A stretch of DNA of 64,000 bases from Acutalibacteraceae bacterium (GCA_045630265.1 JAZQSV010000041.1:525-64524); one strand, 5' to 3'; positions 15,578-47,903 are shown, counted from the first letter of the stretch. The notes: generated from the letters alone by a model not told the origin. Translations and numbers: made by a program.

Positions 15578-15590
15578 ACGCTTGACAACA

Positions 15591-15678
15591 AAACAAGGGG
15601 TGCTAAGCTTAGCTTGGCTGAGAGGGCTTTTGCCTAACTCTGGAACCTGATTCGGGTAATGCCGACGTAGGGATGTTT
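15591..15678 (+). promoter_or_regulatory. TPP (THI-box) riboswitch aptamer
   Basis: GGGGUGC..GGCUGAGA..AACCUGAUUCGGGUAAUGCCGACGUAGGGA, closed by a P1 stem aaaca/tgttt. Confidence 0.9.
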
Positions 15679-15717
15679 ATTTGGTAGGTGCACATACCTT
15701 AAACGTTTAACTCTGTT

Positions 15718-21008: not shown

Positions 21009-21314
21009 CCCATGCGATGGGCGGCGAGTTCGCGCATTCGGTTGGCAAAAGTTTTTAAAATGCGCCCGCGCTTAAAAGTTGCAAGACTGCTCATTTTTTT
21101 TAAAAATGTATATCTTTTAATTTCCTTCCCTGTTCGTGGACCGTGGTATTCTATAACCCTACAACCTTTATTTAGGGGACCTATCTCCCGCGGCGGGCTT
21201 GCAGACCTCCCGATTTTTATCGGACGAAGGGAGCGCGAAACCGTGGGGCGGCCACCCACCTGTTTTATTTGCAGGTTATCAAGCTGCCACTTGCGGCAGG
21301 GCAGGAAAATTTGT
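21008..21314. ncRNA. GC-rich structured non-coding region; candidate ncRNA of unknown family and strand
   Basis: About 300 nt with six or more local hairpins and no protein-like ORF. GC is visibly above that of the flanks. Confidence 0.3.
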
Positions 21315-27749: not shown

Positions 27750-27780
27750 AAATAGGTAAAGGATATTGAATTTCAAGCGA

Positions 27781-27845
27781 ATTGGTATAAGCTTGCAATA
27801 TGGGCAAGCGTTTCTACAAACCGCCGAAAATGGTTGACTACCTGT
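27781..27845 (+). promoter_or_regulatory. purine riboswitch aptamer, guanine class (C at the specificity position)
   Basis: GGUAUAA-GCUUGC-AAUAUGG-GCAAGC-GUUUCUAC-AAACCG-CCGAAAA-UGGUUG-ACU-ACC. L2, L3, J2-3 and J3-1 all match the G-box, and J3-1 reads GACUAC. Confidence 0.85.
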
Positions 27846-27866
27846 ATTTAAGGTGGTCTTTTTTTT
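27836..27866 (+). terminator. terminator of the riboswitch expression platform
   Basis: GACUACC (27836-27842) pairs with GGUGGUC (27852-27858), followed by U8. The 5' arm overlaps J3-1 and the 3' strand of P1. Confidence 0.55.
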
Positions 27867-29678: not shown

Positions 29679-31238
29679 TTATACAAAGGCAACTTTACTC
29701 TCTTCCTTGTGCATATACATAGCCTGGTCGGCCTTTGCAAAAACGTCCTCGTAAACTCTGTCAATTACGGGGTCAAAGAGTGCAACACCTCTTGCAACTG
29801 AAACAGCAACTTTTTTATCACACACGGTAACAAAATCTTTAGAACAGGCCTCATCCATACACCCTAAAAGGGTGTGGTAGTTAGAGTAGTCATCACCCTT
29901 TAAAATAATGGCAAATTCATCGCCACCAATACGGAAAATGGTGCTATCCTTAAATATATCGGTAAGGATTTTTGCGGTATGTATAATTAAATCATTACCA
30001 ACATCGTGGCCGTATTTGTCGTTGGTTTGCTTTAGGTTATTTATGTCGGCTACCACTACGCCAAATTTAGGGTTACCACAACAAATATCTTTGTTTAGCT
30101 CTGCAATGGCTTCGGTGTATGCTGTACTATTTTTAATGCCGGTCAGAGAATCTCTGTAAGCCAGTGCGTTAATGTAGGTGGTATATTCTTTGATTTTTGC
30201 ATAGGCGCTAGTTAAAACGCGGGAAAGGGTACCTACCTCGTCCTTAGATTCTATGGGAATTTCCTTAAGGTCGGTTTCATTTACACCAAGCGCCATTGTT
30301 TCGGCGGCGGAGGTGAGTTGCTTTAAGGGGCGTATAATTCTGTTTGTAACAACTATAGTATAAATAATCGAACAAATAAGAACAATGATAAATGCAAAAA
30401 CTATTTTGCTGAGCATAGGATGAATATCGTGTTGAATATCCTTATAATCAGCGCGAAGTTCTAAAAGCATACCGTTATTAAGCTGGGAGTTTGCCTTTGT
30501 GTGGGGATTTGCAGATTCTTCATGTTCAACCTTATTGTATTGAGTTTGACCGTCTTTGGAAATGAGCACGGCGTAGCCACTTTCGTAAACGTTAATATTC
30601 TGAATACGTTTTATCAGGTAGCTGAAGTCCATATCGAAGCCTACAACACCCACAAGCTCGTTTTGTATGTAAATCGGGGAAACGTAGGAAATAAGCTGAT
30701 TTGAATGGCCCGGGAAGTAGTAGGGCTCAAGCCACACGCCCTCCCTTGCATTTACTGCGGTATAATACCAACCAACGTTTTGGATATCATCCTTACCGAA
30801 CTGATTAAGATCTGTAAGGGGCATGTCCTTCAAAGATCCGTTTATAATCATCTTATAAAAACCGCTTGTACCGTCGGAGACGCTCGGGTCAAGGCGAATA
30901 TAAAATCCCTCTATACCGTTTGTGTTGAGAGCGATCTCAATTAGCATGCTTTCCATTTTTGCAAGGTATGTATTGCGGGCAGTTTTATTTTCAAGATCAT
31001 CTGCGTCTTTGATTTCGGTAATAGCATAATGCACCGCAATGCTTGCAGATTTTGTAATATCCCCCAATACGTCGTTAATTTGCGCAGCTTCCTTTTGGCA
31101 AACGTTGTTTAAAATTCTATCAGCATCACGGTGCATAACCTCGTGGGTCATTTCAACCGCAATAACAGATACTATTGCAGTAATAATCAGAAGTCCCGAA
31201 ATAACAACGGTTAGTATTTTAGTTTTAATTGACTTCAT
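29679..31238 (-). CDS. membrane sensor diguanylate cyclase (TM-Cache-TM-HAMP-GGDEF)
   Basis: Two TM helices flank a Cache-like periplasmic domain. HAMP segment (NRIIRPLKQLTSAAETMA). Intact RIGGDEFAIIL. No RxxD I-site 5 residues upstream (KDSTIF). Confidence 0.9.
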   Translation of the reverse strand: MKSIKTKILTVVISGLLIITAIVSVIAVEMTHEVMHRDADRILNNVCQKEAAQINDVLGDITKSASIAVHYAITEIKDADDLENKTARNTYLAKMESMLIEIALNTNGIEGFYIRLDPSVSDGTSGFYKMIINGSLKDMPLTDLNQFGKDDIQNVGWYYTAVNAREGVWLEPYYFPGHSNQLISYVSPIYIQNELVGVVGFDMDFSYLIKRIQNINVYESGYAVLISKDGQTQYNKVEHEESANPHTKANSQLNNGMLLELRADYKDIQHDIHPMLSKIVFAFIIVLICSIIYTIVVTNRIIRPLKQLTSAAETMALGVNETDLKEIPIESKDEVGTLSRVLTSAYAKIKEYTTYINALAYRDSLTGIKNSTAYTEAIAELNKDICCGNPKFGVVVADINNLKQTNDKYGHDVGNDLIIHTAKILTDIFKDSTIFRIGGDEFAIILKGDDYSNYHTLLGCMDEACSKDFVTVCDKKVAVSVARGVALFDPVIDRVYEDVFAKADQAMYMHKEESKVAFV

Positions 31239-31255: not shown

Positions 31256-33355
31256 CTACTTGGCACCGTTTATGTTGTAAACATCGGTAATGTTTCTGTA
31301 ATAGCCCTCTAAAACGGTATGTCCGCTCGAGTTTTTTACTCGCTTACCACTAAAGCGCACAAGCAAATCGCCCAAAGAGGGGTGGCACCAGGTGAACTCA
31401 ATTTGTACGGCTTTTTCCCCAAGCTTCATTTTACTTAGGCACGTTTCAACCTCAGGTAAGCAGTCGGGATGAATGTTTTTATAAAAATATTCAAAAGATT
31501 CTTTAGGTGTGCTTTGGTTAGCCACACCGGTTAGTTGCGCCATAGTTTTGTCCATATGCAGTTCGTGGCCACCACTGCCGCCAAGACGCATTATCCAAAG
31601 CCCGACACCGTTCTCATGAAGAATATCTTTTGGGTCAAAATGGACAAAGCCGATTTTTTCTTTAAGCTCAAAAATTTTATTTATAAAGGCCTGTCGCTCG
31701 GCATATTCGTTAGAAGATTTATCTATATACGCCCTTTCAATGCCCTCTACAGTGTTTGGCTTATCAAACAAATATCCCTGAATAATATCGGGGAGCAGCA
31801 ACTCTAAGGTTACCAGCTCGCGGGTGCTCTCTACTCCTTCGCAGCAGGTTCTAATGGCGTTGCCTCTAGCAAATTCTATAACGTTACTTATAAGGTTGTG
31901 GTTATAGGTTTCCTTTTCAATACCGCTTACAAAAACTCTGTCAATTTTAATTTCGTCAACGTTCATTTGTTTCAAATAACTAAGATTTGAATATCCTGTG
32001 CCAAAATCATCAATGGCAAAGTTGATGTTATAAAATTTTAGTTTTTTAATGGTATTTACCAGTCGTGGGCTGTTATGAAGCTCAACCGATTCGGTTATCT
32101 CAACCGTAAGTGCATCTCCGGGAAGATCGGCCTGAGTAACTTTTTCTATTACCCTTTCGGCAAGGTCGTTATCTTCAAATTGCAGTGCTGAGAAGTTAAC
32201 ACTTATATGTAGGTTTGGCAAGAATTGGCGCCACTTTTTACACTGTGTAAGAGCTTGCTCCAAGACCCAAAGACCTACCTTTTTAATAAGACGCGACTCT
32301 TCCAAAACGGGTATAAATTCATCGGGAAAAACTCTGCCACGTGTTTGGGAATTGTAACGTAGCAGTGCCTCCACACCGTAAATTTCATAGCTACCGGCGC
32401 GTATTTGTGGCTGGTAATAAATTTCAAAGCCTTCGAAATTATTATCTATGCTTTGCTTTAATTCCTCAAGCAGCTCTAGTGAAGAAATCTTTTTACTTAA
32501 ATCCTCTGAAGAGAAAAACTCAATGCGGTTGTTGGAAATATTTTTTGCTTTTTTAAGGGTCATATTAACCGAGTCCAAAAGCTGAGTTTCATCTAAAAAC
32601 AAGGTATTATCGATAGGCACTGCACTGGCAGTAAAGGTGCACTTTCCCGCCATGGTTTGTTTAATTGTAAGATAACGCTCCATTGCCTCTTCTTGAGACT
32701 CTACGTCTAAAACAAGGGCAAAATAATTGTGGTCTACGTGGTATGCGGCCAATACCTTTTCTAAATTCTCGCAAAACTCGGCGATTTCTTTTAAAAGGGT
32801 ATCACCCCAATCCCTACCGTGGGTAAGGTTAAGGGTAGCAAGACTGTCAATATCAAGGAACATTAAGTATCCCTTGCTTTTGCTTAAATATCCCTTAAGG
32901 TCTGTGCGAAGCTTATTTTTATTCCAAAGAGCGGTAAGGGGATTGTAAAGATGGCGCAAATTTTCTTCCGAAACACGGCCCATCATAAGGTAGGGCTTGT
33001 CCTCGCCATCACGAATAACGGTACCATGGCAGTTTATCCAAACCTTTTGGCCCTTGCGATTAATCCAACGGTAGTCCATATTGTGGGTGTCTTTTTCACC
33101 ATTTACAATCTGGTTTAAGCTATCTAGTACCGCGCCGCGGTCGGCGGGGTGAATAATTTTAAGCATATCGGGAGTGCTGTTTGTTTCACTGCCGTTTTTG
33201 CGAATGTCGTAGTTTTTATCAATGTCTCCAAAAAACCATCTTGTATCTGCCTTAATGTCCCAAACAAAAAGATAGTCGTCTGTAGAGCGGTTAATGGTTT
33301 CAATTAGTTTCAGGGTAGTTTCAAAGCCGTCATTGGTCTTTAGAAAGTTATCCAT
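31256..33355 (-). CDS. c-di-GMP phosphodiesterase (PAS - degenerate GGDEF - EAL - C-terminal PAS-like)
   Basis: EAL set is intact (YGVEALLRY, DDFGTGYSNLSYL, CCEGVES, QGYLFDKP). The GGDEF position reads VDHNYF. The ATG overlaps the DUF4956 stop (ATGGATAA). Confidence 0.9.
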   Translation of the reverse strand: MDNFLKTNDGFETTLKLIETINRSTDDYLFVWDIKADTRWFFGDIDKNYDIRKNGSETNSTPDMLKIIHPADRGAVLDSLNQIVNGEKDTHNMDYRWINRKGQKVWINCHGTVIRDGEDKPYLMMGRVSEENLRHLYNPLTALWNKNKLRTDLKGYLSKSKGYLMFLDIDSLATLNLTHGRDWGDTLLKEIAEFCENLEKVLAAYHVDHNYFALVLDVESQEEAMERYLTIKQTMAGKCTFTASAVPIDNTLFLDETQLLDSVNMTLKKAKNISNNRIEFFSSEDLSKKISSLELLEELKQSIDNNFEGFEIYYQPQIRAGSYEIYGVEALLRYNSQTRGRVFPDEFIPVLEESRLIKKVGLWVLEQALTQCKKWRQFLPNLHISVNFSALQFEDNDLAERVIEKVTQADLPGDALTVEITESVELHNSPRLVNTIKKLKFYNINFAIDDFGTGYSNLSYLKQMNVDEIKIDRVFVSGIEKETYNHNLISNVIEFARGNAIRTCCEGVESTRELVTLELLLPDIIQGYLFDKPNTVEGIERAYIDKSSNEYAERQAFINKIFELKEKIGFVHFDPKDILHENGVGLWIMRLGGSGGHELHMDKTMAQLTGVANQSTPKESFEYFYKNIHPDCLPEVETCLSKMKLGEKAVQIEFTWCHPSLGDLLVRFSGKRVKNSSGHTVLEGYYRNITDVYNINGAK

Positions 33356-34019
33356 GATACTCACCGTTATACTGGATAAGTGTAGCGTCCTCTACACCCT
33401 CCACTTCCTTTATTTTATCTAGGAAGAACATATCGTTGTTCTTGCAGTACACTTCAACCGCCATTTCGGTCTTGCCTTTACGTACTGTCTTGGATTTTAC
33501 AAAGTATTTCATTTTACCTAAGGCGCGGATTACGTTATCGCCAACCTCGTCGCCCTCATAGTGAATAACGGCGATATAAATGCGTCCCTTTTGCTGCTTG
33601 TTGTAGAAGATAATAATCATACCTATCATTACTATAGCAGTAACAGCAACAAGCAAATACATACCTGCGCCTGACGTGATACCGGTGGTTATTGCCCAGA
33701 AAAGGTAAAGTAAATCAAGCGGGTCCTTAATTGCGGTTCTGAAACGTACAATAGAAAGAGCACCAACCATACCAAGAGAAATAACAATGTTGGTACTAAT
33801 GGCCAGGGTTACCATTGCAGTAAGAACTGTCATACCCACAAGGGTAATTGCAAAACTGCGGGAATAAATAACTCCAACGAAAAATTTGCTGTAGACAAAG
33901 TAAATAACTGCGCCCATAAGCACTGCCGTTATAAGACCAAGGGCAATGCTAGTAAGACTGGCACCATCAAAGGCACCTGATTCAAGTATTGACTTTTTTA
34001 TAAAATCTTGAACGCTCAT
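33348..34019 (-). CDS. DUF4956 family membrane protein
   Basis: Multi-pass N-terminal half followed by a soluble C-terminal domain. It is the usual partner of VTC-domain genes. The ATG at 34019 follows a GGAGGGA SD. Confidence 0.7.
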   Translation of the reverse strand: MSVQDFIKKSILESGAFDGASLTSIALGLITAVLMGAVIYFVYSKFFVGVIYSRSFAITLVGMTVLTAMVTLAISTNIVISLGMVGALSIVRFRTAIKDPLDLLYLFWAITTGITSGAGMYLLVAVTAIVMIGMIIIFYNKQQKGRIYIAVIHYEGDEVGDNVIRALGKMKYFVKSKTVRKGKTEMAVEVYCKNNDMFFLDKIKEVEGVEDATLIQYNGEYHG

Positions 34020-34033
34020 AAAATTTCCCTCCA

Positions 34034-34756
34034 CTAATTTTCAAACCAATATTTAAAACTGTTCATATACTCAGTTTTTTCGTAACAAAGCACGTATTTT
34101 GAAACTGCCGTAAATTCCGAACCTCTGCCGGGGAGTATTTCTCTGACAAACTGCGGCAAAAATTCGGTAAACTTTACCTCCATAACACATTTGCCCGGCT
34201 CCAAGACCGGAAGAGTGGGAAGCGTGGGGTCAAAAATATCAAAGCTACCCACCGCCGCGCGAACGTCCATATCAAAGGTAATTCGTACCGTACCTTCGTC
34301 CAGTATCCAGGGCTCTCTGTCGTAGTCAACAATGGTGCGGGGACGCATCATATTGCAGACGCATTCGGTATAAAATTCTCTGCAAAGAGGTTGGTCGCTG
34401 TGCAGCAAAAATTCGTAGTCGCCGTCTAAAATCTTATAAACCTCATCCTTTGTAAGCGAGGCCGCTTCTTTAAAAATATAGGCGCCGAATTTTTTCTTTC
34501 TTTCAAGCTTTATACTGCTGTCGCCGCAGTCGTATATGCGAATACGGTATTTTTTTCTTCTTAAAACACCGGCATCTTTTTCCTCGTATGCCGATTTATA
34601 GCAGTCCTCAAAGTAAAGACTTCTTAGCATATATCCGCCGTTTTTGGCGTGCTTATCAAGTTTAAGAAGTGGGTCAAGCCGCTTGCAAATAAGCTGCTTT
34701 TGGGCAGTATCTATAAGATATTTCCATTCGTTTCTATAACGCTCAGGTTTCGACAT
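34034..34756 (-). CDS. VTC-domain (polyphosphate polymerase / CYTH-like tunnel) protein
   Basis: YRNEWKYLI...MLRSLYFED...YRIRIYD...MEVKF is an alternating charged beta-strand pattern typical of the VTC/TTM fold. The ATG at 34756 overlaps the cotH 3' end. Confidence 0.7.
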   Translation of the reverse strand: MSKPERYRNEWKYLIDTAQKQLICKRLDPLLKLDKHAKNGGYMLRSLYFEDCYKSAYEEKDAGVLRRKKYRIRIYDCGDSSIKLERKKKFGAYIFKEAASLTKDEVYKILDGDYEFLLHSDQPLCREFYTECVCNMMRPRTIVDYDREPWILDEGTVRITFDMDVRAAVGSFDIFDPTLPTLPVLEPGKCVMEVKFTEFLPQFVREILPGRGSEFTAVSKYVLCYEKTEYMNSFKYWFEN

Positions 34757-36509
34757 AAATGTCCTCCACAATATTACCTTCTTTGTCTACGAAGAAACTC
34801 TTTGTACCGTAAATCTTACCTCGCTCCAAAATGTAGTAGTCAAAGGCATACTGCGTTTCACCGCTCTCGTTTTTAGCAGTTACGCGCATAAAGTACTGTC
34901 CTTTTGGAAGCTTATCAAATTTTGCTATTGGAATAGAAATATCTGTCTGTTTTACTAAAACGTTTTTGAAGTTATAATCCTTTGCAAGCTCAAATGTATA
35001 TGTAATATCTTCGCCATTGAAGTCAAAGGAGGCATCCCATTCTACTGTATATCCATCATTTTTTTTCACCGGAACACCAATATAAAATGGCATCGGCTTT
35101 TTCAAAGAGGCCTTATAAAGAGCATAGTTATCGGCTATTTCCTTGGTTATACTCTTAGCCACTTTGTCATACTCAGATTTTGTAAGGCGGGTATAGGTTA
35201 AATCTTTGCCCTGATATACGTAAGGTTTTAAAAGCTTTGAGTAGGCATCAACGTAGGAGTTAACAAGCTCGTCGCTCATAAGGTTCTTTAAATCTTCTAC
35301 TGCCTTGTCAAGTTCTTTAAGATAGGTTTCAGATTTAAGAAGGCGCTGGAATAGTACGTTACCCCAATAGTTACTAACGCCGCGTTCCCAATTAAGATAG
35401 TCGTTTCTTCCTAAAATTTTGTACTCCTCAGCGAGGAAGGAACCGTCGATATCCCAAGGGAGAATATACCATCTGTCCATGTTTTGTGGGCTGTAGATAT
35501 AGAAGTTGCGGTTTTGGGTATCAATATTACCTATAAGCAGGTTGAATGCCATCCAGTAGGCAATATTTTCTATATCTAAATGCTCTTCTACAATCTCCTC
35601 TATAGGAATGGAGAAATCGTTTATTTTTTCGAGCAGGTTAATAAGCTTTGTGTGGTCGTCGTCGCCCTTTATTTCCAAAATTTCCTCGAACTTTTTAAGG
35701 TCGTATTTGGGATCCTCTTTTAAAACAATAATATCTTCGTAGCGGTAAAATTCGCACACGTTGATTTTGTAAAGATGTCCTCTGTTGTCAAGACCGTGGG
35801 CCTTAAGAGCGGTTTTGTTAAGCTGTTCTACCTGCGTGTAAATTCCGTAGTCCTGAAATTTGCCGCTGCCGCCCGCCGTTGTATCCTTAACGTATAGGTG
35901 AACAAAGGTGGTGCGAAGACTAAGTAGCTGTTCGATATTTGTAAGCAAATCAAAGCCAAGTTTGTTTCTAAAGCGAAGACCGTCGCCCTGATGCTTATTA
36001 AGGGCAAGGGTGGTTTGTCCGCGCCAGTCGCCTTTATTCTCTTTAATGCTTATCTTGTAGTTTTTCTGGGGATTTCTACTGGAGGACTGACCCCTTATTT
36101 GCACCGTGCAGTTTGGGGCCATCTGTCCGTAGCCAAGCTCACCGGGCATAAGACCCTTTTCATCGCCTACCTGTAAAAGACCTGCAACCTTATATCGGTC
36201 TACACCCATTCGGTCGTAGTCATATGCAGAATAGGTATTTATCTCCTCCCAGGTGTGGTTGGTGCCCTCACCCTCGTTACCCGTAGAAACGGTAAGATAC
36301 ATAGTAACAATTTCAGTGTTACTGTATTGTGAGTATAGTAGATTCTTGTCCCTTATATGTATACTTTCTTCGGTTTCGAAGTCCTCTGCATCCAGCTTGG
36401 TGCCCAGGTTGGTATCAATTGCTGTGTTAATATTACTATCACTGCAACCGCAAACCGAAAGAAGCATTAAAAGGGCAAGTGCCAAAGACAAAAAAGCTTT
36501 AAGTTTCAT
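34743..36509 (-). CDS. cotH: CotH-family atypical kinase-fold protein, lipoprotein-type signal peptide, C-terminal Ig/FN3-like domain
   Basis: MKLKAFLSLALALLMLLSVCGC signal. CotH core (LALNKHQGDGLRFRNKLGFDL, NFYIYSPQNMDRWYILPWDIDGSF). Confidence 0.8.
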   Translation of the reverse strand: MKLKAFLSLALALLMLLSVCGCSDSNINTAIDTNLGTKLDAEDFETEESIHIRDKNLLYSQYSNTEIVTMYLTVSTGNEGEGTNHTWEEINTYSAYDYDRMGVDRYKVAGLLQVGDEKGLMPGELGYGQMAPNCTVQIRGQSSSRNPQKNYKISIKENKGDWRGQTTLALNKHQGDGLRFRNKLGFDLLTNIEQLLSLRTTFVHLYVKDTTAGGSGKFQDYGIYTQVEQLNKTALKAHGLDNRGHLYKINVCEFYRYEDIIVLKEDPKYDLKKFEEILEIKGDDDHTKLINLLEKINDFSIPIEEIVEEHLDIENIAYWMAFNLLIGNIDTQNRNFYIYSPQNMDRWYILPWDIDGSFLAEEYKILGRNDYLNWERGVSNYWGNVLFQRLLKSETYLKELDKAVEDLKNLMSDELVNSYVDAYSKLLKPYVYQGKDLTYTRLTKSEYDKVAKSITKEIADNYALYKASLKKPMPFYIGVPVKKNDGYTVEWDASFDFNGEDITYTFELAKDYNFKNVLVKQTDISIPIAKFDKLPKGQYFMRVTAKNESGETQYAFDYYILERGKIYGTKSFFVDKEGNIVEDIYVET

Positions 36510-36512
36510 TCT

Positions 36513-37964
36513 TTATCTCCTCTCAAACCGTTCTTCTAAAAATACCCCAAGTCGTGTGAAAAAGCCACTGCGGTCCTCTGCCACAAGGGGCTGTACAGAC
36601 AATATGTAAAATGGAAGCCGCTTGGTAAAATAGTCAAGCCGCAGTGCGGCAATTATTACAAAAACAAGTGCTGCAATTAAAAATCCAAAGCCGTAATAGA
36701 CGTATGAAAAGAAAAGGGAGAATATTGTAAGCACCGTTCCTAAAGTGGCAAAAACAAAGGTTGCAAGCAAGGCTCCCTTATAATCTGTAAAGTAAAGAAG
36801 AATAAGCATAAGCATATTGCCTATAGCGTAAAGCCCGTAGGCAACGCAAAGTGTTCTGAAATATCCGCGCATAATCTCGTTAAAGCCAAGGGGAAGTAAA
36901 TCCAACAAAAATCCGCCAAGTGCAATACAGGCCGCGGTAAAAAGCAGTTGTTTAAGCGAGGTGTAGAAAATTTCGGTTTTAAGGGTTCCCAGCATTTCTT
37001 TTTCGGACTGCTTAATATCACCAATAGTGCCTTTATCGTTATAAAGACTGTAGTGGTTGCGGTATTTGGGATAGAAATTAACCTCTACTGAAACAACAAA
37101 ATTAACAGTGGTCATAAGCGCCGTCATAAAGGCAATAAGTGCGGGAACGTCGTGCCATGGTGCGCCGTAGAACAGACCCTTAACGTGCACCCTTATATCG
37201 GAACACCATATTATAACAAGGTGAGAGAACATTCCAATATTCATAAAAAGTCCCGAAAGGGCAAGGGGTAAAAACTCATCCAGCCATCTAAGGAAGGTAA
37301 AGGCGCCAAGTTTTGTGTGGGGGAAGTAGCGATGAAGCAAAATTACGTTCCAGATAAGCATTATTCCATAACCGACACTAACTGAAAACAAAAGTGATTC
37401 AATGGTAGGGAACCTTAGCCACAAAAGCAATGTGCCAAGTAGTATAGAAACAGCAACCGAGGTTAAAAAGGAAAGGAAAATTCCCTTATAGTCCTTAATT
37501 GCAGTTAAAAAGCTCATGGCGTTCCAAACAATTATAAGCTCGCCAAAAAGTACAAAGCACAAAACTCCCTGAATCAGTGTTGCGCCAGAAAAAACCAAGA
37601 ATAAGCCGTAGAGGGGGCTTCCAACTGCCAACATTATAACGGTAGAGCCCCAAAATGCGGGTAAAACAGCACCGTTTTGCTCTTCAAAAAGCATATCGGC
37701 AATATAGCGGGTTACCACCATAGAGAAAAACGAAGAAACGGTAACCGAAGCCAAAAGTGTGTAGGTTATCATACAAATAAGCAACTCGCGATTATGTGTA
37801 TCTATTGCAAAAAAACTGCAAATAGCCATAATACCAAGTAGCAGTAAAACACCAAGCAACATAGGGCCTGCACATATAATTGTTGCATAACCGTAGGCCT
37901 TGGTTGTGTTAAGCACGCCCTTTTTTTGGAAAAGCTTTTTTAGTTCAAAGCCGATTCCTGCCAA
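36513..37964 (-). CDS. pelG: Pel exopolysaccharide export/polymerisation membrane protein PelG
   Basis: The N-terminus MAGIGFELKKLFQKKGVL is the PelG hallmark. About 12 TM helices. The TTG start lies inside the pelF 3' end. Confidence 0.85.
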   Translation of the reverse strand: MAGIGFELKKLFQKKGVLNTTKAYGYATIICAGPMLLGVLLLLGIMAICSFFAIDTHNRELLICMITYTLLASVTVSSFFSMVVTRYIADMLFEEQNGAVLPAFWGSTVIMLAVGSPLYGLFLVFSGATLIQGVLCFVLFGELIIVWNAMSFLTAIKDYKGIFLSFLTSVAVSILLGTLLLWLRFPTIESLLFSVSVGYGIMLIWNVILLHRYFPHTKLGAFTFLRWLDEFLPLALSGLFMNIGMFSHLVIIWCSDIRVHVKGLFYGAPWHDVPALIAFMTALMTTVNFVVSVEVNFYPKYRNHYSLYNDKGTIGDIKQSEKEMLGTLKTEIFYTSLKQLLFTAACIALGGFLLDLLPLGFNEIMRGYFRTLCVAYGLYAIGNMLMLILLYFTDYKGALLATFVFATLGTVLTIFSLFFSYVYYGFGFLIAALVFVIIAALRLDYFTKRLPFYILSVQPLVAEDRSGFFTRLGVFLEERFERR

Positions 37965-39379: not shown

Positions 39380-41227
39380 CTATTTAAAGGAAACCGTAAC
39401 AGTATCCTTATTAGCTTCAAGCAAATATAAATTTCCCGTAATGTGGGTAAGCTTTCCGCCCAGAACCTTATCGGGCTTATTTTCATTAAAGCGCACCATA
39501 AACTGCGCGTTGTCGTAAAAGTTTTCTATGGTAAGAACCATTTTATCGTCGTAAACCGTGGTTTTGGGCGCAACCGCGGCAAAGCGCTGAACGGCGTTGG
39601 ACATTTCAGAGCCGGTAAAGTTGCGTAGTTCGGGGGCCGAGGTGTAAAGCCAGCTAAGATAAGAGTCAAACCTTTTTGTAAGTTCTCTCCAACCAAGCTC
39701 TGCGCCACGATCGGGGTCAAGCGCATCGTCAGGGTGGGTAAAGTGGTTGTTTATATAGTGGAAATTAAGTTCAGAAAATGCGCCCATTGTCATAAAGTCG
39801 TCAATGTCGCAGCCTGAAATAATACGGGGCTGGTCAACGATGCCGTTTTCGTCAACCTCGTACTCTTGCAGTAGGGCAAAATCCAAAACGTCATCGGGAA
39901 GATAAATACCCGAAAGGGTTTTAATCTGGTCAAATTCAGTTATAAGCATCTCCCTGCCCTCATCTGAAATAAGGTTTGAAGGGGGAACGTAAACCGACAT
40001 TTCTACACCGGGAAAAAGCTCGTCGCAAAAATCGGTGAGATGGGTAAAGGCCTTTACCATAGCGGTGTAGCTCTCCCAAGTTTTATAATCAAAAATACCT
40101 TTATAATCTTTATTATTCAGACAAAGGGGTTGGTGGTTATAACCGTGGTAACCAATTTCTCCGCCCTTTCTAAGAAGCATATTGCCAAAGGTCATAAAGG
40201 TAGCGGTATCGGGCTGGGCGTCGGTTGTTCCGTCTATATTGTCATCGTAGCTTTCTATTGCAAGACCGGTATACTTAATGCCGTAGCGATCTGAAAAATT
40301 CATCATACTCGGCCACCAAATATTGATGTAAAAATCTCTGATGGTGGTGCCGTAGTCGCGGGTTATGTACTCACTGTTTCCGCTTGGAATCTGCGACGGA
40401 AAGTCGTCAAGATAAAAGGTAGAACCGTTTATAACAGGATAAACGTAAACCTTTTTCATAAGACTGATTGATGCGGCGAAGAAGCCCCTGTAGGCCTTAT
40501 CACACATGCCAAAGTTATCTACAACGAACATACCGTCACCATACACAGCTTTCCAAATTACGGGTATGCCGGTTTGGTTTTTTATGCGGGCGTATACTGT
40601 AGTCTTTCCTGGCATCAACTGAACCGTTCTTGCCGATTCATAAAAGTCAGTAACAACGTAGGATTTTCCTGCACCCACCATAAAGTCCTTTTCTACGTAT
40701 ATCTCATCTACGGCGGAGTAGCCAAAGCTTGCCGCAATACCAAGGCGGTTTTCAATGGCCGAGGAATAGGCGTTTTTATCAAGGGTAAGGGGAAAAAGCA
40801 CGCTTCCGCCCTCATAAACCCAATTACAAATATCAATAATTTTTTCTCCCACAAAGGAAAGGTCGGAGAAAAGAATAATAACGTTTTTAAAGCCCGAAAG
40901 CTCGGGTATCTGTTCATCTTTAAGGTTTACGTACTTAGTGCCAACCTTCATATCGGTTAAAATAACCTCAAACTGTTCCAGGGCGAAAACAGATGGCTCG
41001 TTTTCGCTGCTATAAAGCAGTAACGTATCGGATTCAAGGGAACTACAGGCTTTTGCTTTAGTTACTATGTTCTCTTTTGGGAGAGGTTCTAAGCTTTGTG
41101 CGGAATAATTAAACCTTACACCGCTAAGCTCAATAAAAAGGATAGCCGCAATCAGGGAGAATACCATAGCAATGGCCAAAACTCCCTTAAATCGGAAATT
41201 ATTAAATTTTTCCCTCAGCTTTCCCAA
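39380..41227 (-). CDS. pelA: DUF2194-type membrane-anchored polysaccharide deacetylase (PelA deacetylase-domain equivalent)
   Basis: N-terminal TM helix. CE4-like metal motifs (FYLDDFP and GYHGYNH). It occupies the position between pelE and pelF. Confidence 0.7.
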   Translation of the reverse strand: MGKLREKFNNFRFKGVLAIAMVFSLIAAILFIELSGVRFNYSAQSLEPLPKENIVTKAKACSSLESDTLLLYSSENEPSVFALEQFEVILTDMKVGTKYVNLKDEQIPELSGFKNVIILFSDLSFVGEKIIDICNWVYEGGSVLFPLTLDKNAYSSAIENRLGIAASFGYSAVDEIYVEKDFMVGAGKSYVVTDFYESARTVQLMPGKTTVYARIKNQTGIPVIWKAVYGDGMFVVDNFGMCDKAYRGFFAASISLMKKVYVYPVINGSTFYLDDFPSQIPSGNSEYITRDYGTTIRDFYINIWWPSMMNFSDRYGIKYTGLAIESYDDNIDGTTDAQPDTATFMTFGNMLLRKGGEIGYHGYNHQPLCLNNKDYKGIFDYKTWESYTAMVKAFTHLTDFCDELFPGVEMSVYVPPSNLISDEGREMLITEFDQIKTLSGIYLPDDVLDFALLQEYEVDENGIVDQPRIISGCDIDDFMTMGAFSELNFHYINNHFTHPDDALDPDRGAELGWRELTKRFDSYLSWLYTSAPELRNFTGSEMSNAVQRFAAVAPKTTVYDDKMVLTIENFYDNAQFMVRFNENKPDKVLGGKLTHITGNLYLLEANKDTVTVSFK

Positions 41228-42096
41228 AATGCAAAAACCTCCTTTGCTCTTGAAGAAAGGAAAATGTGACTGTCTTCTATTTCCTTCATCAGTTTCTTTA
41301 TATCATCACCTCTGCCAAGTGAGGCAAGGTATTTCAGTTTAAGTAAAAAATAATCTTCGGTTTTTGGGTAGGCCTTTTCCATTTGCCTTAGCGTTTCGCC
41401 CGCAAGGGTAAAGTTTTTGCGAATAAGCTCATTCTCTACCGTACGAACATAGTCGTGTATATTTGCCGTTTCGGAAAGCTTTTTAAGCATTAGTGAAGAA
41501 AAAAGCTCGCGATTTAGCACCTCTACCTGACCTTGCATAAGATTTTGTGAAAGGCAGTTCCATAAAAAGTCGGTATATTTTTCCAAAACAAGTGGGTTGT
41601 CGGGTTCAGCGGCATACTGCCTTTCAAGGTCTTGCAGCATATAGTCATTTTCCTTGGAAATTTCCACCATTGCCGTTACGGCGTAGTGAACAACCTCGGT
41701 ATCCTCGTTGTTGCCCGCCTTTTGTAAAAATTCAATATATTCCTTGGGGTTATCGTTAAGCACATCCATAATAATTGTGCGTCTTTCTTTGGCTGAGTTT
41801 ACAACAAGTGCCTCTTCAATAGGTACAGTGGAAGCGGCAACCTTTTTCTCATCTATGGTAATACCCTTATAAAGCTCCGATTCAAGTTTTAGTTTTTCTA
41901 CTCCAACTTCAATTCCGTCGTCGGCTTCAAACCAAATTTGAAAGTGTAGTATAAGTAGTAATATGGCACCCCAAAAAGGAATGAATAGTGCCACAAAGAA
42001 CATATACTTATGGACCTTTAAAATATTAAATTTAATGCCTAAAAATATTAGCAGACACAAAATTAAATGTACCGCAAGTACTATTAAGTATATCAT
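41215..42096 (-). CDS. pelE: PelE-like protein (two N-terminal TM helices plus helical repeat domain)
   Basis: The topology and operon position match PelE. The sequence itself is weakly diagnostic. Confidence 0.55.
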   Translation of the reverse strand: MIYLIVLAVHLILCLLIFLGIKFNILKVHKYMFFVALFIPFWGAILLLILHFQIWFEADDGIEVGVEKLKLESELYKGITIDEKKVAASTVPIEEALVVNSAKERRTIIMDVLNDNPKEYIEFLQKAGNNEDTEVVHYAVTAMVEISKENDYMLQDLERQYAAEPDNPLVLEKYTDFLWNCLSQNLMQGQVEVLNRELFSSLMLKKLSETANIHDYVRTVENELIRKNFTLAGETLRQMEKAYPKTEDYFLLKLKYLASLGRGDDIKKLMKEIEDSHIFLSSRAKEVFAFWES

Positions 42097-42121
42097 CTTA
42101 CACTCAGTCCTTATTGTATTA

Positions 42122-42413
42122 GGGTATCTTGCTCTACCTTAGGGTAGAACGACATACCCGAACCCGCCTCAAGGTGGCATATTTTGGCGTTTTTCATCCA
42201 TTTAATTCTTGTAATGCGAAAGCATTACCACGCCTTAAATGAACAAAAATCACACAAAATCTCCTCACTTTGAGGTCGAAGATTTTTAAAATAGAGGATT
42301 TTTGTTCTATAAAGGCAAAAACGCAGTAAATCCTTTCGGATTTACGAGTATTTTAACAAAGATAGAGCGAAAATCCACATTTTAAAAACGTGTTCGGATA
42401 TATCGCTCTACCC
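42122..42413 (-). repeat. pair of related imperfect palindromes bounding the pelD-pelE spacer; their arms also form a 22-bp long-range helix
   Basis: Left palindrome at 42122-42159 and right palindrome at 42363-42410. Positions 42142-42163 are complementary to 42392-42413, with 3 mismatches that are all G-U on the sense (minus) RNA. Confidence 0.6.
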
Positions 42414-45194
42414 TAAGTTCACATCCAAATCCAGCCCCTCAAAGCGTGGTAAAATATATTGAAGGTCAGCTTCAGAAGCTTGTGAGAGAAGTAAAATAAG
42501 TTCACCCTCATTTTCGGTGGCACCTATAATATCATTAGCACGAATCTTTGGGGCAAGAATGGTATCGAGTTCCTCTAAAGAGTGGCCCTTGCCGTTAATT
42601 TTAAGCAGCAAGAAGGTTGAAACCTTTTTCTCCGAAAGGGCCTTGAAGTTTTTAAGACATTCATCGAACGGTTCTTTGCGCATAATGTGGGTGTTTTCAA
42701 TGTACTGCTTTTCGTAAACTGCCTGACTATAGTCAAATGCGCGGAGAAGCGACATCTGAACAAGGTCTCGCAAAATTTTAAGAAGGTTTACGTAGTAAAG
42801 AGAGCGCTGGTCAATTCCCGCATGCCACAAAAAGATAAGCATTACAAGCCTTTCTCCGCGATAAACGCCCGCAGCATACATAGGAAGATCATGCCTTAAA
42901 TCTATGTTGCGCCAAATTTCACCCTTTTTAAGTGTGTCTATAACCTCTTTGTAGGTTTCGGTGGATATAGAACGGGAAACACCTTCGATGATGTCGCGGG
43001 AGGCGACCTCAAGTCGTCCAAAAGCACTTTTATCGTTTACCGAATAAACGGTAATGCTTTTGTTTTCAAGCACCTCCTCAAAGGTTTCCATAATTCTTAA
43101 ATACAAAAGCTGCGGCTCTACTGTATCAAGTCGGCGGGTAATATCAAAAATCTTACCAAAGCTATCCTTAGAGCCAATAATCTGTTTTTTTAGGTCCCTT
43201 TTCTCGCGGTAGGTGTCTTCATAAATCTCGCGTGTGAATACAAGCTTATCCTCAAGAAGGCGGTTTTGTTCGGATACAAACTGAATTGTATCATCCTTTC
43301 TTAGCTTTACATAACCACAAAGTGCGCCAACCAAAGCAAAGAATACAAATGCAAGCCAGTTGGTGGGCTCGTAAAAAATGGTCATTAAATTGGTACCCGA
43401 TATAACCTTGGCCACCAGCCAAGAAAGACTGCTAAGCCCTGCTGCCATAAGGCCAAAGTTAAGTCCGTGTATAGTGGCCATTATAACTATGTAGGCCATT
43501 CTAAAATCAACAACCGAGAATATTACGGTTGAGCCGGTTAAATGCAACAAAAGCTCGGTTACAAGGAAAAGAACAATAAGTTCGGTGAATTTAATGAAAA
43601 GACTGTGCTTTTCAATCCAGCTTTTTATCTTGTCCAACAGAGTTTCATTATGCTCGTTTTTAAGGGATACAAATCTTTCATACTCTTCGGGCAGGTCATC
43701 TAAAAGAGAAATTTTGGCAAACCAACCGTACTCGTTGCGAAGCGCACGGTTAGTAAGGGTAATTTCACTCGGTTCATTATCCCCAACAAAGTCTATTTTA
43801 GCGTCCTTTCTAAGGGAAACAAGTGCATTTGCAAAATCCGAAAAACGAATATTAAACTCGTCGCCAACCGTTAAAATGCCGCCGCCGCTTTTCCAGTTGT
43901 CGGTAAGGCGTATTAAAAGTTCGGAAAGGTCAGAAGGAGAAATAAAATGTATTTTTTCTTCCTTGGGACGCTTTATGGTTATGGTTTTACCGTCGTACAC
44001 CTTTTGGAAGATTTTATATAAAAAGTCGTTTTTATACCTTGCTGAATAAAGGTAAGGAATCTGCACAATCTTAACGTCAAGGGTTTTATTTTTTGAGTAG
44101 AAGTGGCAAAGTTTTTCCTTTGCGGCCGACAAAATAGCTCGGTCTGATTGCTCAGTAAAGGATGAATCAAGGGAGGAAAGGTAAACAACCTTAGCGTGTT
44201 TTTGAAGCTCAGCCGAATATTTTAAAACCTCTCTTAACTCTTCAGCATCATTTTTTTCGGTCGTATGGAAGGTGAGCTCGCTGGAGAAAAATACAATAAG
44301 ATCAAAATCGTAAGTTTCAAGCACTGCGCGGATAGAGGGCTTTTTAATACGGAAAAGCTTAATCCTGTCCTTAGAGCCAAGCTCGGTATTGCCTATTACC
44401 ATAACCTTGCTGTCGGGGAAGGTGGAGTCAATAAAATCCTTGGTTATGTACTGCGTGTTACCAATAAAAAGCACACGTTCGGGTACAAATCCGGCACTAT
44501 TAGCAGTAACCGCTCTTTGTTTTGTGAGAATTTCTCTAAGGGCTACAAGGTCGCTGTGGTTTACAACGTGAAGTAAAGCGTCAACAAGAATTTCGTTGAA
44601 GACACCGCACATGCCACTTGAAATCATCTGAACGGCAACGTCTTGTGAAAAGGCTTCCTTATAGCTGCGGTTACTGGTTAAAGCGTCGTAAGAGTCGGCA
44701 AGGGATACCACTTGCGCCGAAAGAGGAATATCGTCCCCTTTCAGTCCGTCGGGGTAGCCGGTGCCGTCGTACCTTTCGTGGTGGGCACGTGTAATCTCGG
44801 CTGCATATTGTTTAATTTTGGGATTCAGTCCTGAGAAATCAAGCTCGTTCACAAGCTTCTCACCGAAAACTGAATGCTTTTTAACAATGTCGTACTCTAC
44901 TGGAGAAAGTCGTCCGGGAAAATCTAAAATGCTTTTGGGAATTTTGGATTTTCCTATATCGTGCAGGGAAGAGGCAATAGATATAGCGTCAATGTCTTCG
45001 TCACTAAGGTCATATTTATCATGATTCTGGAGCTCTTTTAAGATTAACTGGGTAAGCATACGAACATGGTAAATATGAAAGCCGTTTTCCCCATTAAGAT
45101 TTTTAGGGATGGTGCTATCGGTGAAAACCTCTATTTTTACGGTCGCAGCATCGCCATTTTGCTCTAAAACCAAAAGGGAGTTTTGCTCTGCCAT
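42408..45194 (-). CDS. pelD: PelD-like c-di-GMP receptor fused to an N-terminal HD-GYP domain (HD-GYP - degenerate SDR - 4 TM - GAF - degenerate GGDEF)
   Basis: HD-GYP motifs SLHDIGKSKIP and HHERYDGTGYPDGL. The SDR-like region lacks GxxGxxG (FIGNTQYIT). A TM block is followed by a C-terminal GAF/GGDEF-like region with no GGDEF motif. Confidence 0.75.
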   Translation of the reverse strand: MAEQNSLLVLEQNGDAATVKIEVFTDSTIPKNLNGENGFHIYHVRMLTQLILKELQNHDKYDLSDEDIDAISIASSLHDIGKSKIPKSILDFPGRLSPVEYDIVKKHSVFGEKLVNELDFSGLNPKIKQYAAEITRAHHERYDGTGYPDGLKGDDIPLSAQVVSLADSYDALTSNRSYKEAFSQDVAVQMISSGMCGVFNEILVDALLHVVNHSDLVALREILTKQRAVTANSAGFVPERVLFIGNTQYITKDFIDSTFPDSKVMVIGNTELGSKDRIKLFRIKKPSIRAVLETYDFDLIVFFSSELTFHTTEKNDAEELREVLKYSAELQKHAKVVYLSSLDSSFTEQSDRAILSAAKEKLCHFYSKNKTLDVKIVQIPYLYSARYKNDFLYKIFQKVYDGKTITIKRPKEEKIHFISPSDLSELLIRLTDNWKSGGGILTVGDEFNIRFSDFANALVSLRKDAKIDFVGDNEPSEITLTNRALRNEYGWFAKISLLDDLPEEYERFVSLKNEHNETLLDKIKSWIEKHSLFIKFTELIVLFLVTELLLHLTGSTVIFSVVDFRMAYIVIMATIHGLNFGLMAAGLSSLSWLVAKVISGTNLMTIFYEPTNWLAFVFFALVGALCGYVKLRKDDTIQFVSEQNRLLEDKLVFTREIYEDTYREKRDLKKQIIGSKDSFGKIFDITRRLDTVEPQLLYLRIMETFEEVLENKSITVYSVNDKSAFGRLEVASRDIIEGVSRSISTETYKEVIDTLKKGEIWRNIDLRHDLPMYAAGVYRGERLVMLIFLWHAGIDQRSLYYVNLLKILRDLVQMSLLRAFDYSQAVYEKQYIENTHIMRKEPFDECLKNFKALSEKKVSTFLLLKINGKGHSLEELDTILAPKIRANDIIGATENEGELILLLSQASEADLQYILPRFEGLDLDVNLG

Positions 45195-45241: not shown

Positions 45242-45270
45242 ATTATAATATATATAAATTTCTTTGTCAA
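45242..45270 (-). promoter_or_regulatory. exact consensus sigma-A promoter, TTGACA-17-TATAAT, upstream of pelD
   Basis: Minus-strand TTGACA at 45270-45265 and TATAAT at 45247-45242, about 40 nt upstream of the pelD ATG. Confidence 0.7.
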
Positions 45271-46865: not shown

Positions 46866-47903
46866 CTAATTAAAATAGTCATCAAGGCTGGCAAAGGAAT
46901 AGCCCTCTGCCACTGCGGTGTCTATAATTCTTCCGAGAGCGTTTGCATTGTCTTTAGAAACAGCGTGGAGGAGTATTACGGCGCCGGGGTGGAAGCGGGA
47001 GGTAACGGTGGTGTGGGCGTAGTCCGGTCCCTTTTGAGTGGAGGTATCCCAGTCAGCATAGGCAACTGACCAAAAGACGGAGCGAAAACCAATAGAGGTA
47101 ACAAGCTCTAAAGCACATTCGGAATACGCTCCCTCTGGGAATCTGAAATAGGGGCTCGAATAACCAAAATTAGCTCTCAAATAATTATCTAAGGTGCCAA
47201 TTTCTTCCGCCATTTGGGGACGGGTAAGTTTTGGAAAGGAGGGATGGGTGGTACTGTGGTTGCCGACAATGTGCCCCTCATTTATCATACGTTCTACCAG
47301 GTAGGGGTTTTTCTTTGCGTAGTCAAGGGTTACGAAAAAAGCTGCCTTTACCTGCTTTTCTTTTAGGGAGTCTAAAATGCTGGCGGTAAGGTTTTGGTAC
47401 TCGTAGCCATTATCAAAGGTAAGGTACATTACTTTTTCCCTAGTTTTTGTGTCAAGGGCAAGAGCCTTTACATTTGGGAAACTGTCAAATGTGGCTTGGT
47501 TTGCAATCGACTGACTATGAGGAACTCCATTTTTTGCAACACCGTAGGAAAATCCGCGTCTTTCGGTATTAAGCCCCAATGAATTGTCGGGGTCGTTTAC
47601 GGTAAACGTAAATACCTGCAGTGGCTCTCTGGTAGGGAGTGTTACGTTAGGTAGCGGCGCCACACTGCTTACCTGCTCGGTGCTAACCGTAGGGCTACTG
47701 CCGACCTCTGCGCTTTGTAGCAAAGAAGAAGCGGCCTCTGTCTCCGACGGCGTTTTTGAAGACACGTTGTCCTTCCCAGAGCTCATCGCTTCTCCTGCTA
47801 AGGAAGAGGCGTTTTCTTTGATGTCATTTTCCTTTTTGCCCTTACAACCAAACAGCGAAAGGGTAAATATAATACAAAAAAACAAAGCAAAAATCCGCTT
47901 CAT
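46866..47903 (-). CDS. NodB-type polysaccharide deacetylase lipoprotein (PdaA-like)
   Basis: LSLFGC lipobox. YLTFDNGYEY, GHIVGNHSTTHPS, YFRFPEGAY. Confidence 0.8.
   Translation of the reverse strand: MKRIFALFFCIIFTLSLFGCKGKKENDIKENASSLAGEAMSSGKDNVSSKTPSETEAASSLLQSAEVGSSPTVSTEQVSSVAPLPNVTLPTREPLQVFTFTVNDPDNSLGLNTERRGFSYGVAKNGVPHSQSIANQATFDSFPNVKALALDTKTREKVMYLTFDNGYEYQNLTASILDSLKEKQVKAAFFVTLDYAKKNPYLVERMINEGHIVGNHSTTHPSFPKLTRPQMAEEIGTLDNYLRANFGYSSPYFRFPEGAYSECALELVTSIGFRSVFWSVAYADWDTSTQKGPDYAHTTVTSRFHPGAVILLHAVSKDNANALGRIIDTAVAEGYSFASLDDYFN

Follow-up and report, generated by a model that had tools for sequence, protein, structure and literature searches.

How does cyclic di-GMP (c-di-GMP), a second messenger that diffuses freely, yield specific outputs? 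The question is an open one in the field: local sources of c-di-GMP are documented, and local sinks, which have been proposed to be formed by specific phosphodiesterases, are 'equally conceivable' and little studied (PMC10118264). The 64,000-nucleotide stretch of DNA analysed here (hereafter the window; Acutalibacteraceae bacterium, GCA_045630265.1 JAZQSV010000041.1:525-64524) raises this question through one gene, which offers what appears to be a natural case of a degrading enzyme joined by a covalent link to an exopolysaccharide synthase's receptor subunit. Its product joins an HD-GYP domain to PelD, the c-di-GMP receptor of Pel synthesis. We propose, with a probability of roughly 0.55, that the protein is a PelD of class III type which licenses the Pel synthase through its I-site, and that its N-terminal HD-GYP domain is an active phosphodiesterase that depletes adjacent c-di-GMP.

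An original prediction, made from the DNA sequence, had placed a 928-residue protein of five modules at 42408-45194 without naming a strand. We set the minus strand, on which 42408..45194 translates as a single unbroken open reading frame (ORF) of 928 codons with an ATG start; the plus strand across the same interval is packed with stop codons. A ribosome-binding site, AAAGGAGAG, lies directly 5′ of the pelD ATG. Pfam, PDB and Foldseek searches, hhalign and hydropathy agree on the five modules in the order that had been predicted, namely HD-GYP, a degenerate domain of the short-chain dehydrogenase/reductase (SDR) type, four transmembrane (TM) helices, GAF and degenerate GGDEF. A full-length AlphaFold model reached a mean predicted local distance difference test score (pLDDT) of 72 and a predicted template modelling score (pTM) of 0.40; at this pTM its inter-domain geometry was left unused. 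The gene and its parts are as follows.

42408..45194, minus strand: HD-GYP-PelD fusion gene, 928 amino acids (aa) plus stop (ORF and homologous loci)
45242..45270, minus strand: sigma-70-type promoter candidate of the pel cluster, TTGACA-17-TATAAT, 12/12 (consensus match only)
45090..45194, minus strand: N-terminal 35 residues, a beta-hairpin in the model and the least conserved part (mean identity 30% among fusions)
44550..45089, minus strand: HD-GYP domain, aa 36-215 (Pfam, PDB profile match, Foldseek, conservation)
44751..44783, minus strand: HHERYDGTGYP motif, aa 138-148 (motif and conservation)
44481..44549, minus strand: linker between HD-GYP and SDR, aa 216-238, of low confidence (pLDDT below 50 at residues 213-234; 42% identity)
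43650..44480, minus strand: degenerate extended-SDR (epimerase-like) domain, aa 239-515 (profile search, Foldseek, motif map)
43290..43649, minus strand: membrane block, aa 516-635, with TM helices at about 531-553, 558-576, 578-598 and 614-633
43125..43289, minus strand: long juxtamembrane helix, aa 636-690, the most conserved segment (80% identity)
42705..43124, minus strand: GAF domain and connecting helix, aa 691-830 (model, Foldseek, hhalign)
42411..42704, minus strand: degenerate GGDEF domain, aa 831-928, with NEGEL at the A-site position
42531..42542, minus strand: predicted I-site R885-A-N-D888, equivalent to P. aeruginosa R367/D370 (alignments and conservation)
42444..42446, minus strand: R917, predicted second I-site Arg, equivalent to P. 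aeruginosa R402 and B. cereus R395 (alignments and conservation, PMC7112168)

The N-terminal domain was recognized by every search applied to it. Pfam HD_5 matched at 6.5e-26, and the closest solved relatives in a single-sequence PDB search were PmGH (4mcw, 2e-29), PA4781 (4r8z, 1e-25) and V-cGAP3 (5z7c, 3e-24), the last being a 3′3′-cyclic GMP-AMP (3′3′-cGAMP)-specific HD-GYP phosphodiesterase. A profile built from 60 homologues returned the same three proteins with E-values of 7e-34, 1e-31 and 2e-30, respectively, and Foldseek of the full-length model gave PA4781 and PmGH as top matches, with an identity of about 31-34% across some 190 aligned residues. Unlike PmGH and PA4781, the domain has no preceding REC or GAF input domain and is followed by a membrane-anchored receptor. 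Both of the HD-GYP motifs quoted in the original prediction were located, SLHDIGKSKIP, which contains H78 and D79, and HHERYDGTGYPDGL, which spans aa 138-151.

Residue roles were transferred from PmGH (PMC4159591; the numbering of the PDB chain is that of the paper plus 6). The PmGH metal ligands E185, H189, H221, D222, H250, H276, H277 and D305 align with E36, H40, H78, D79, H107, H138, H139 and D167, respectively, so that eight of eight are present and the caveat attached to the prediction, that some ligands might be missing, does not apply. The catalytic Lys K225 corresponds to K82, G284-Y285-P286 to G146-Y147-P148, I294 to I156 and D308 to D170; R314 and K317, which contact guanine in PmGH, correspond to R176 and K179. 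The extended HHExxDGxGYPx7I motif is complete and reads HHERYDGTGYPDGLKGDDI. Across 64 full-length fusion proteins, E36, H40, H78, D79, K82, H107, H138, H139, GYP, D170 and R176 are invariant, D167 and G144 are each kept in 63 (with one D167Y and one G144A), and I156 and K179 do not vary in the 60-sequence alignment. The predicted complete metal and GYP motifs are thus borne out both in this protein and across its relatives. With Glu at the E185 position, the domain belongs to the HD-GYP subgroup that Bellini et al. predict to be trinuclear (PMC4159591). Among the fusions HD-GYP averages 68% identity, the SDR 55% and the GGDEF domain 52%; HD-GYP is therefore among the best-conserved modules, which argues for continued selection on it. 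With these features the domain is predicted to act on c-di-GMP.

The remainder of the protein resembles PelD. Hydropathy and the model place four main helices inside a hydrophobic block at residues 531-633, which aligns to the PelD TM region. A separate model of residues 636-928 (pLDDT 75) showed a GAF fold after a long helix, and then a short GGDEF-like alpha/beta domain, and its Foldseek matches were Dcsbis (6.5e-7) and the P. aeruginosa PelD structures 4etz, 4dn0, 4etx and 4dmz (4e-6 to 6e-5). For profile-profile comparison, a six-sequence PelD alignment was assembled from Burkholderia thailandensis, Pseudoalteromonas, Azonexus, Azospirillum, Cetobacterium and P. aeruginosa; five members come from pel operons on plasmids or megaplasmids and the P. 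aeruginosa sequence was taken through its PDB alignment. The B. thailandensis, Pseudoalteromonas and Azonexus members are annotated as PelD, and the member from Azospirillum and the short, Gram-positive-type one from Cetobacterium merely as GAF domain proteins. Against this alignment, a TM-GAF-GGDEF profile of 111 representatives scored a probability of 99.5% and an E-value of 3.4e-22 in hhalign over 366 columns, from the TM region through the end of the GGDEF domain, with about 12% identity across the aligned profile columns. The kinship was detected by these two routes, profile-profile hhalign and Foldseek. Pfam and NCBIfam scans of the whole protein and of C-terminal fragments gave no PelD_GGDEF or GAF match, single-sequence phmmer against the PDB gave no PelD match, hhalign against one single PelD sequence gave a probability of 0.5%, and a 24-sequence C-terminal profile gave only weak GGDEF matches (E 0.014 to 1.2). 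BLAST and HMMER are likewise blind to the Gram-positive PelD of B. cereus, according to Whitfield et al. (PMC7112168). No GG[DE]EF occurs anywhere in the 928-aa protein; the position aligned to the GGEEF of a canonical cyclase is NEGEL, with a family consensus of xDGxxY. The layout that had been read as a PelD receptor, a four-TM block followed by GAF-like and GGDEF-like regions without a GGDEF motif, is thereby upheld, and the 4TM-GAF-degenerate GGDEF core is common to the class I PelD proteins of P. aeruginosa (4dn0, 4dmz, 4etx) and B. cereus, which have neither an SDR nor an HD-GYP domain, unlike the fusion protein.

The prediction had left the I-site undecided among several RxxD tetrads, naming RRLD, RNID and RAFD; all three proved wrong and a fourth emerged. 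The RxxD of B. thailandensis PelD, itself aligned to the P. aeruginosa RGLD (R367, D370), coincides with R885 and D888, and R917 falls in hhalign on the Arg of 'YLARIE' / 'YLQRLR', which is R402. A weak independent alignment to a canonical cyclase puts the RAND tetrad five residues upstream of the GGEEF position. R885, D888, G891 and R917 do not vary among the 64 fusion proteins, and their conservation is still at least 90% over 111 representatives of SDR-PelD whose identity to the query is just 22-61%. The triads R367/D370/R402 of P. aeruginosa and R363/D366/R395 of B. cereus would accordingly match R885/D888/R917, and the spacing of 32 residues from RxxD to the second Arg in B. cereus PelD is the same here. 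On the strength of these alignments, the predicted I-site is RAND 885-888 plus R917. c-di-GMP binding has been demonstrated for the P. aeruginosa and B. cereus proteins, and in B. cereus R363, D366 and R395 are needed for binding and for biofilm formation (PMC7112168); binding would be expected at R885/D888/R917. The remaining tetrads were rejected: D690 of RRLD 687 is Asn in 28 of the 64 fusion sequences, D765 of RNID 762 is variable, RAFD 818 sits in the helix that links GAF to GGDEF, and RLTD, RFSD and RKDD are located in the SDR or at the membrane boundary.

Between the two halves lies the SDR domain. Single-sequence matches to it were weak (PDB 3m2p, E 0.018; Pfam Epimerase, 0.085), and a profile of the 111 diverse homologues matched extended-SDR L-threonine dehydrogenases and nucleoside diphosphate (NDP)-sugar epimerases in the PDB at 9e-24 to 1e-18; Foldseek returned UDP-N-acetylglucosamine 4-epimerases. 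When the family HMM was used to place the SDR motifs onto L-threonine dehydrogenase 5z75, the GxxGxxG position read G245-N-T-Q-Y-I-T251 and the catalytic YxxxK position R352-A-I-L-S356. With both motifs lost, cofactor binding and catalysis are degenerate, in agreement with the predicted epimerase-like domain with a degraded NAD motif (FIGNTQYIT, found at aa 243-251) of the kind published for Gram-positive PelD.

These features allow the protein to be set against the published PelD classes: class I is TM-GAF-GGDEF, class II adds an active SDR, class III adds a degenerate SDR, and class IV, from streptococci, has a degenerate SDR without GGDEF (PMC7890745, PMC12345266). Residues 239-928 share the exact layout of class III, including the retained RxxD I-site (PMC7112168, PMC7890745), and the SDR likewise lacks GxxGxxG and YxxxK. 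What differs is about 235 additional N-terminal residues with HD-GYP; the published classes are set by the presence of SDR and GGDEF, and none has a phosphodiesterase domain. As HD-GYP (aa 36-215) precedes the SDR, the protein falls outside the four classes and is in effect a fifth, although the kind of system is already known. The literature searched yielded no account of HD-GYP fused to PelD; Whitfield et al. name HD-GYP generically only (PMC7112168).

How widespread is the fusion, and did it arise once? A word-indexed protein search returned more than 120 clusters (at 90% identity) of 922-949 aa that are 65-72% identical to the query, and one cluster (P0001) is 100% identical to the window protein. 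Named members, from Clostridia or from Acutalibacteraceae metagenome-assembled genomes (MAGs), carry merely the label 'HD domain-containing protein', which makes the Pel link invisible to annotation in the databases sampled. When aa 225-928, which leave out HD-GYP, served as the query of an exhaustive HMMER search, 1088 homologous clusters (at 50% identity) were recovered; of the 150 best, almost all are about 700 aa long with the SDR at the start, and the N-terminal extension is present in two only. In a scan of one genome per GTDB species, 66 of 80 loci carried the fusion (48-71% identical to the query), with complete ORFs of about 925-1050 aa in 63 and contig ends cutting the other 3. All 66 carriers are Oscillospirales-type Clostridia, mainly gut MAGs (goat, sheep, roe deer, buffalo and others); among them are the isolates Angelakisella massiliensis and Pseudoflavonifractor phocaeensis as well as a Ruthenibacterium MAG and Candidatus Allofournierella. 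The other 14 loci, of Lachnospiraceae type (Blautia, Marvinbryantia, Schaedlerella and relatives), share the cluster; their PelD, of about 700 aa, lacks HD-GYP.

Fusions were grouped by identity thresholds and by the unweighted pair group method with arithmetic mean (UPGMA). In the shared region any two fusions are at least 43.6% identical and a true non-fusion is at most 41.3% identical to any fusion, and all fusions form one UPGMA cluster; this identity gap and the single cluster fit a single origin, and the HD-GYP-PelD fusion probably arose once. A fusion from adjacent genes was considered and rejected: none of the 13 Lachnospiraceae non-fusion loci checked has a stand-alone HD-GYP gene at 10 kb or less from pelD.

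Some members of the family depart from the common form. P0121, on a 4.6-kb metagenomic contig (L088, 1-2701), lacks HD-GYP; its identity is 61% to the query and reaches 71% with the nearest fusion. All that is left of HD-GYP in frame upstream is a piece of its last helix, ERLVDCLEKV, with unrelated sequence before it, which indicates either secondary loss (a natural deletion variant) or a chimeric assembly. P0124, of 736 aa, has HD-GYP and SDR, lacks the whole TM block and is frame-shifted at its C-terminal end; it is probably a defective or mis-assembled copy. The most divergent fusions (L052, L053, L054 and L063, from Pseudoflavonifractor, Ruthenibacterium, Angelakisella and Allofournierella) are 1010-1048 aa long, 48-50% identical to the query, and carry after the GGDEF domain an extra low-complexity tail of about 80-120 residues rich in Pro, Lys and Ala.

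The setting of the gene is a Pel cluster, which continues downstream of pelD on the same strand.

41215..42096, minus strand: PelE-like protein, 293 aa, with two N-terminal TM helices and a helical C-terminal part
39380..41227, minus strand: PelA(DA)-type deacetylase, DUF2194 at 2.3e-147 (naming per PMC7112168)
37940..39370, minus strand: PelF glycosyltransferase of family GT4, NCBIfam equivalog NF038011 at 1.1e-94, above cutoff
36513..37964, minus strand: PelG, PF16933 at 1.4e-130
34743-36509, minus strand: cotH, an accessory gene
34034-34771, minus strand: VTC/polyphosphate (polyP)-polymerase-like protein, an accessory gene
33348-34034, minus strand: DUF4956, an accessory gene
31256..33364, minus strand: PAS, degenerate GGDEF and EAL protein, a probable c-di-GMP phosphodiesterase
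29679..31238, minus strand: dCache-HAMP-GGDEF membrane diguanylate cyclase with RIGGDEF intact

The PelE-like protein has no Pfam or NCBIfam family match, and its assignment therefore draws on position and topology; the gene is kept beside pelD in related loci. The order pelD-E-A(DA)-F-G is that of Gram-positive pel clusters, and with cotH, the polyP-polymerase-like (VTC) gene and DUF4956 the order corresponds to the clostridial and streptococcal pel clusters with accessory genes described by Whitfield et al. (PMC7112168). Wherever related contigs reach far enough, pelE, pelA, pelF, pelG, cotH, VTC and DUF4956 are kept downstream. At the end of the cluster a PAS-GGDEF-EAL gene stands instead of DUF4832, as in bifidobacteria (PMC7112168), and is followed by the cyclase gene. 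Of the loci with the fusion, about 35 have the EAL gene next after DUF4956, and the Lachnospiraceae loci all lack it at this place; the cyclase gene lies beyond the examined flanks in most related loci. In the PAS-GGDEF-EAL protein HNYF replaces the GGDEF motif and every EAL catalytic motif is recognisable, by which it is a probable c-di-GMP phosphodiesterase. The cyclase has its GGDEF motif and lacks an RxxD I-site. The 15.5-kb cluster as a whole thus encodes a sensor cyclase, two phosphodiesterase modules and a receptor.

Upstream and downstream of pelD some local features were seen. In the window 311 nt of non-coding DNA (42097-42407) stand between pelD and pelE; in about 75 related loci there is no gap, or even an overlap, between the two ORFs. 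Inside this spacer lies a terminator-like hairpin (42345-42326, minus strand) with a T-run behind it, and the spacer could make pelD partly independent of the other cluster genes in the source genome. An 89-nt piece of it (42313-42399) is 81% identical to sequence 5′ of pelD in another MAG (L011:37-124), which suggests a small repeated or mobile intergenic element. No riboswitch or other Rfam family matched the spacer; the leader 5′ of pelD was covered by the whole-window Rfam scan at the gathering threshold. About 1.7 kb upstream of pelD lies a polysaccharide deacetylase gene (46866-47903, minus strand; Polysacc_deac_1, 1.6e-32), with a divergently oriented MatE transporter gene between the two.

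What could an HD-GYP domain do on this receptor? In the mechanism that we favour, the protein serves a Gram-positive Pel exopolysaccharide synthase (PelD-E-F-G with the deacetylase PelA-DA) as its PelD subunit, and the dCache-HAMP-GGDEF cyclase at the cluster end would be the likely source of c-di-GMP. The even number of TM helices implies that the HD-GYP-SDR and GAF-GGDEF parts lie on the same, presumably cytoplasmic, side of the membrane. The HD-GYP domain, at the cytoplasmic N-terminus and tethered beside the receptor site, would hydrolyse c-di-GMP there. Such a local sink would raise the c-di-GMP level needed to switch Pel on, shield the synthase from the global pool and turn it off fast once the local cyclase stops. 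We infer this sink or reset logic from the arrangement of the domains, and the 'built-in feedback or timer' of the original prediction is a reasonable inference of the same kind.

Several observations weigh against the domain serving as such a sink. With an EAL phosphodiesterase already encoded in the cluster, there is no obvious need for another degrading activity. The close relative P0121 keeps a PelD without HD-GYP, by which HD-GYP is dispensable for retaining a PelD gene. At a pTM of 0.40 the placement of HD-GYP relative to the GGDEF domain is unreadable in the full-length model. Last, the position of PmGH D183 is N34 here, an Asn that is invariant in the fusions; D183 is the proposed general acid of PmGH, and Ala mutants of D183, K225 and D308 are inactive (PMC4159591). 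Turnover by a domain with N34 could be slow or absent. The stretch after the neighbouring Glu also differs, E-T-Q in PmGH versus E-N/S-G here. The description of the domain as apparently intact therefore stands for the ligands, K82, D170, GYP and I156, and not for this position. Among solved HD-GYPs the D183 position is Ser in V-cGAP3 and Asp in PA4781, and since it varies among characterised members N34 is not diagnostic.

The same Asn, through the slower catalysis that it could bring, lends some weight to an alternative that we consider unlikely, namely that the domain is mainly a sensor, trigger or docking module of low turnover rather than a sink. As a sensor, it would bind c-di-GMP or pGpG and relay its occupancy to the SDR-TM-GAF part; as a docking module, its GYP loop would dock the GGDEF domain of PelD, of a partner cyclase or of the PAS-GGDEF-EAL protein and so provide the synthase with a signalling complex of its own. 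RpfG has been suggested to work as a trigger enzyme (PMC4159591), the fusions conserve the GYP loop and I156, and the cluster encodes three GGDEF-type domains. However, the known non-catalytic HD-GYPs have lost ligands or motifs, as in the 9rbz protein with LSQVGK for HDIGK, and the non-catalytic Bd1817 has a closed lid (PMC4159591), whereas the ligands are complete here. The clade keeps every metal ligand (bar the single D167Y) down to 44% identity elsewhere in the protein, which fits selection for catalysis.

If the domain is a hydrolase, its substrate may differ. We regard it as quite improbable, although not without basis, that HD-GYP is active on another nucleotide (pGpG, 3′3′-cGAMP or another cyclic dinucleotide) and that PelD couples two signals. 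The 3′3′-cGAMP-specific V-cGAP3 (5z7c) is among the three closest solved relatives; moreover, PmGH hydrolyses through to GMP (PMC4159591), which makes pGpG a natural substrate of the subgroup, and the co-encoded EAL enzyme would yield pGpG. Yet the best matches are c-di-GMP enzymes, the PmGH guanine contacts R314 and K317 are kept as R176 and K179, and no sign of cGAMP signalling was seen in the 64-kb window, in which motifs and part of the ORFs were scanned. The idea that the fusion is unreal, a sequencing or assembly frameshift having joined a separate HD-GYP gene to pelD, as the original prediction had allowed, can be practically dismissed: no support for it was found beyond a linker (aa 216-238) that is poorly conserved and of low model confidence, the frame is continuous, the same single ORF of about 925-1050 aa recurs in 63 independent species-level assemblies that include isolate genomes, more than 120 protein clusters (90% identity) have the fusion, and the non-fusion Lachnospiraceae loci have no stand-alone HD-GYP near pelD.

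A speculative extension of the local sink, to which we give little credence, concerns redox state. The gut Oscillospirales-type Clostridia are strict anaerobes, the HD-GYP domain keeps a full iron-type ligand set, and diiron HD-GYPs reportedly show redox dependence, in work by Miner and colleagues from 2013. The fused HD-GYP might then brake Pel synthesis under redox control: in the gut, under reducing conditions, a ferrous HD-GYP would strip c-di-GMP continuously from the adjacent I-site and hold Pel off; O2 or nitric oxide (NO), at the mucosa or outside the host, would oxidise the metal centre and inactivate the phosphodiesterase; and the receptor would then be filled at an unchanged cyclase output, setting off aggregation as a protective response. 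In a variant of this idea, PelD's own GGDEF domain would be docked by the GYP loop, and substrate occupancy of HD-GYP would be the direct trigger. If true, the redox brake would make PelD a coincidence detector of 'cyclase on' and 'oxidant present' in one polypeptide.

Does the proposed local sink have precedents? Fusions of receptor and turnover modules, and local modules at synthases, are already known; HD-GYP on PelD is a new variant. PilZ fusions to HD-GYP, EAL or GGDEF, credited to Amikam and Galperin in a preprint (bioRxiv 10.1101/814665), likewise place receptor and turnover modules on one polypeptide; the receptor here differs in being a degenerate GGDEF I-site and an integral polysaccharide synthase subunit. 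No functional studies of PilZ-HD-GYP fusions were found in the literature searched. In the phosphoethanolamine (pEtN)-cellulose module of E. coli, association reportedly occurs by non-covalent protein contacts (Richter and colleagues, 2020), whereas here a covalent linkage joins the phosphodiesterase to the receptor and the cyclase gene belongs to the cluster. That module (cited in PMC10118264) comprises a dedicated cyclase and phosphodiesterase beside a synthase-bound receptor, in place of the global pool. The fusion makes the idea of a local sink testable on one protein by comparing the point mutants H78A/D79A with R885A/D888A. Many uncultured Clostridia of ruminant and other animal guts carry a complete Pel system that is apparently c-di-GMP controlled, and matrix production and c-di-GMP signalling are essentially unexplored in them.

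Elsewhere in the window, three RNAs unrelated to the pel cluster scored above the Rfam gathering threshold, each on the plus strand.

15586-15690, plus strand: thiamine pyrophosphate (TPP) riboswitch
21119-21311, plus strand: 6S RNA
27763-27860, plus strand: purine riboswitch

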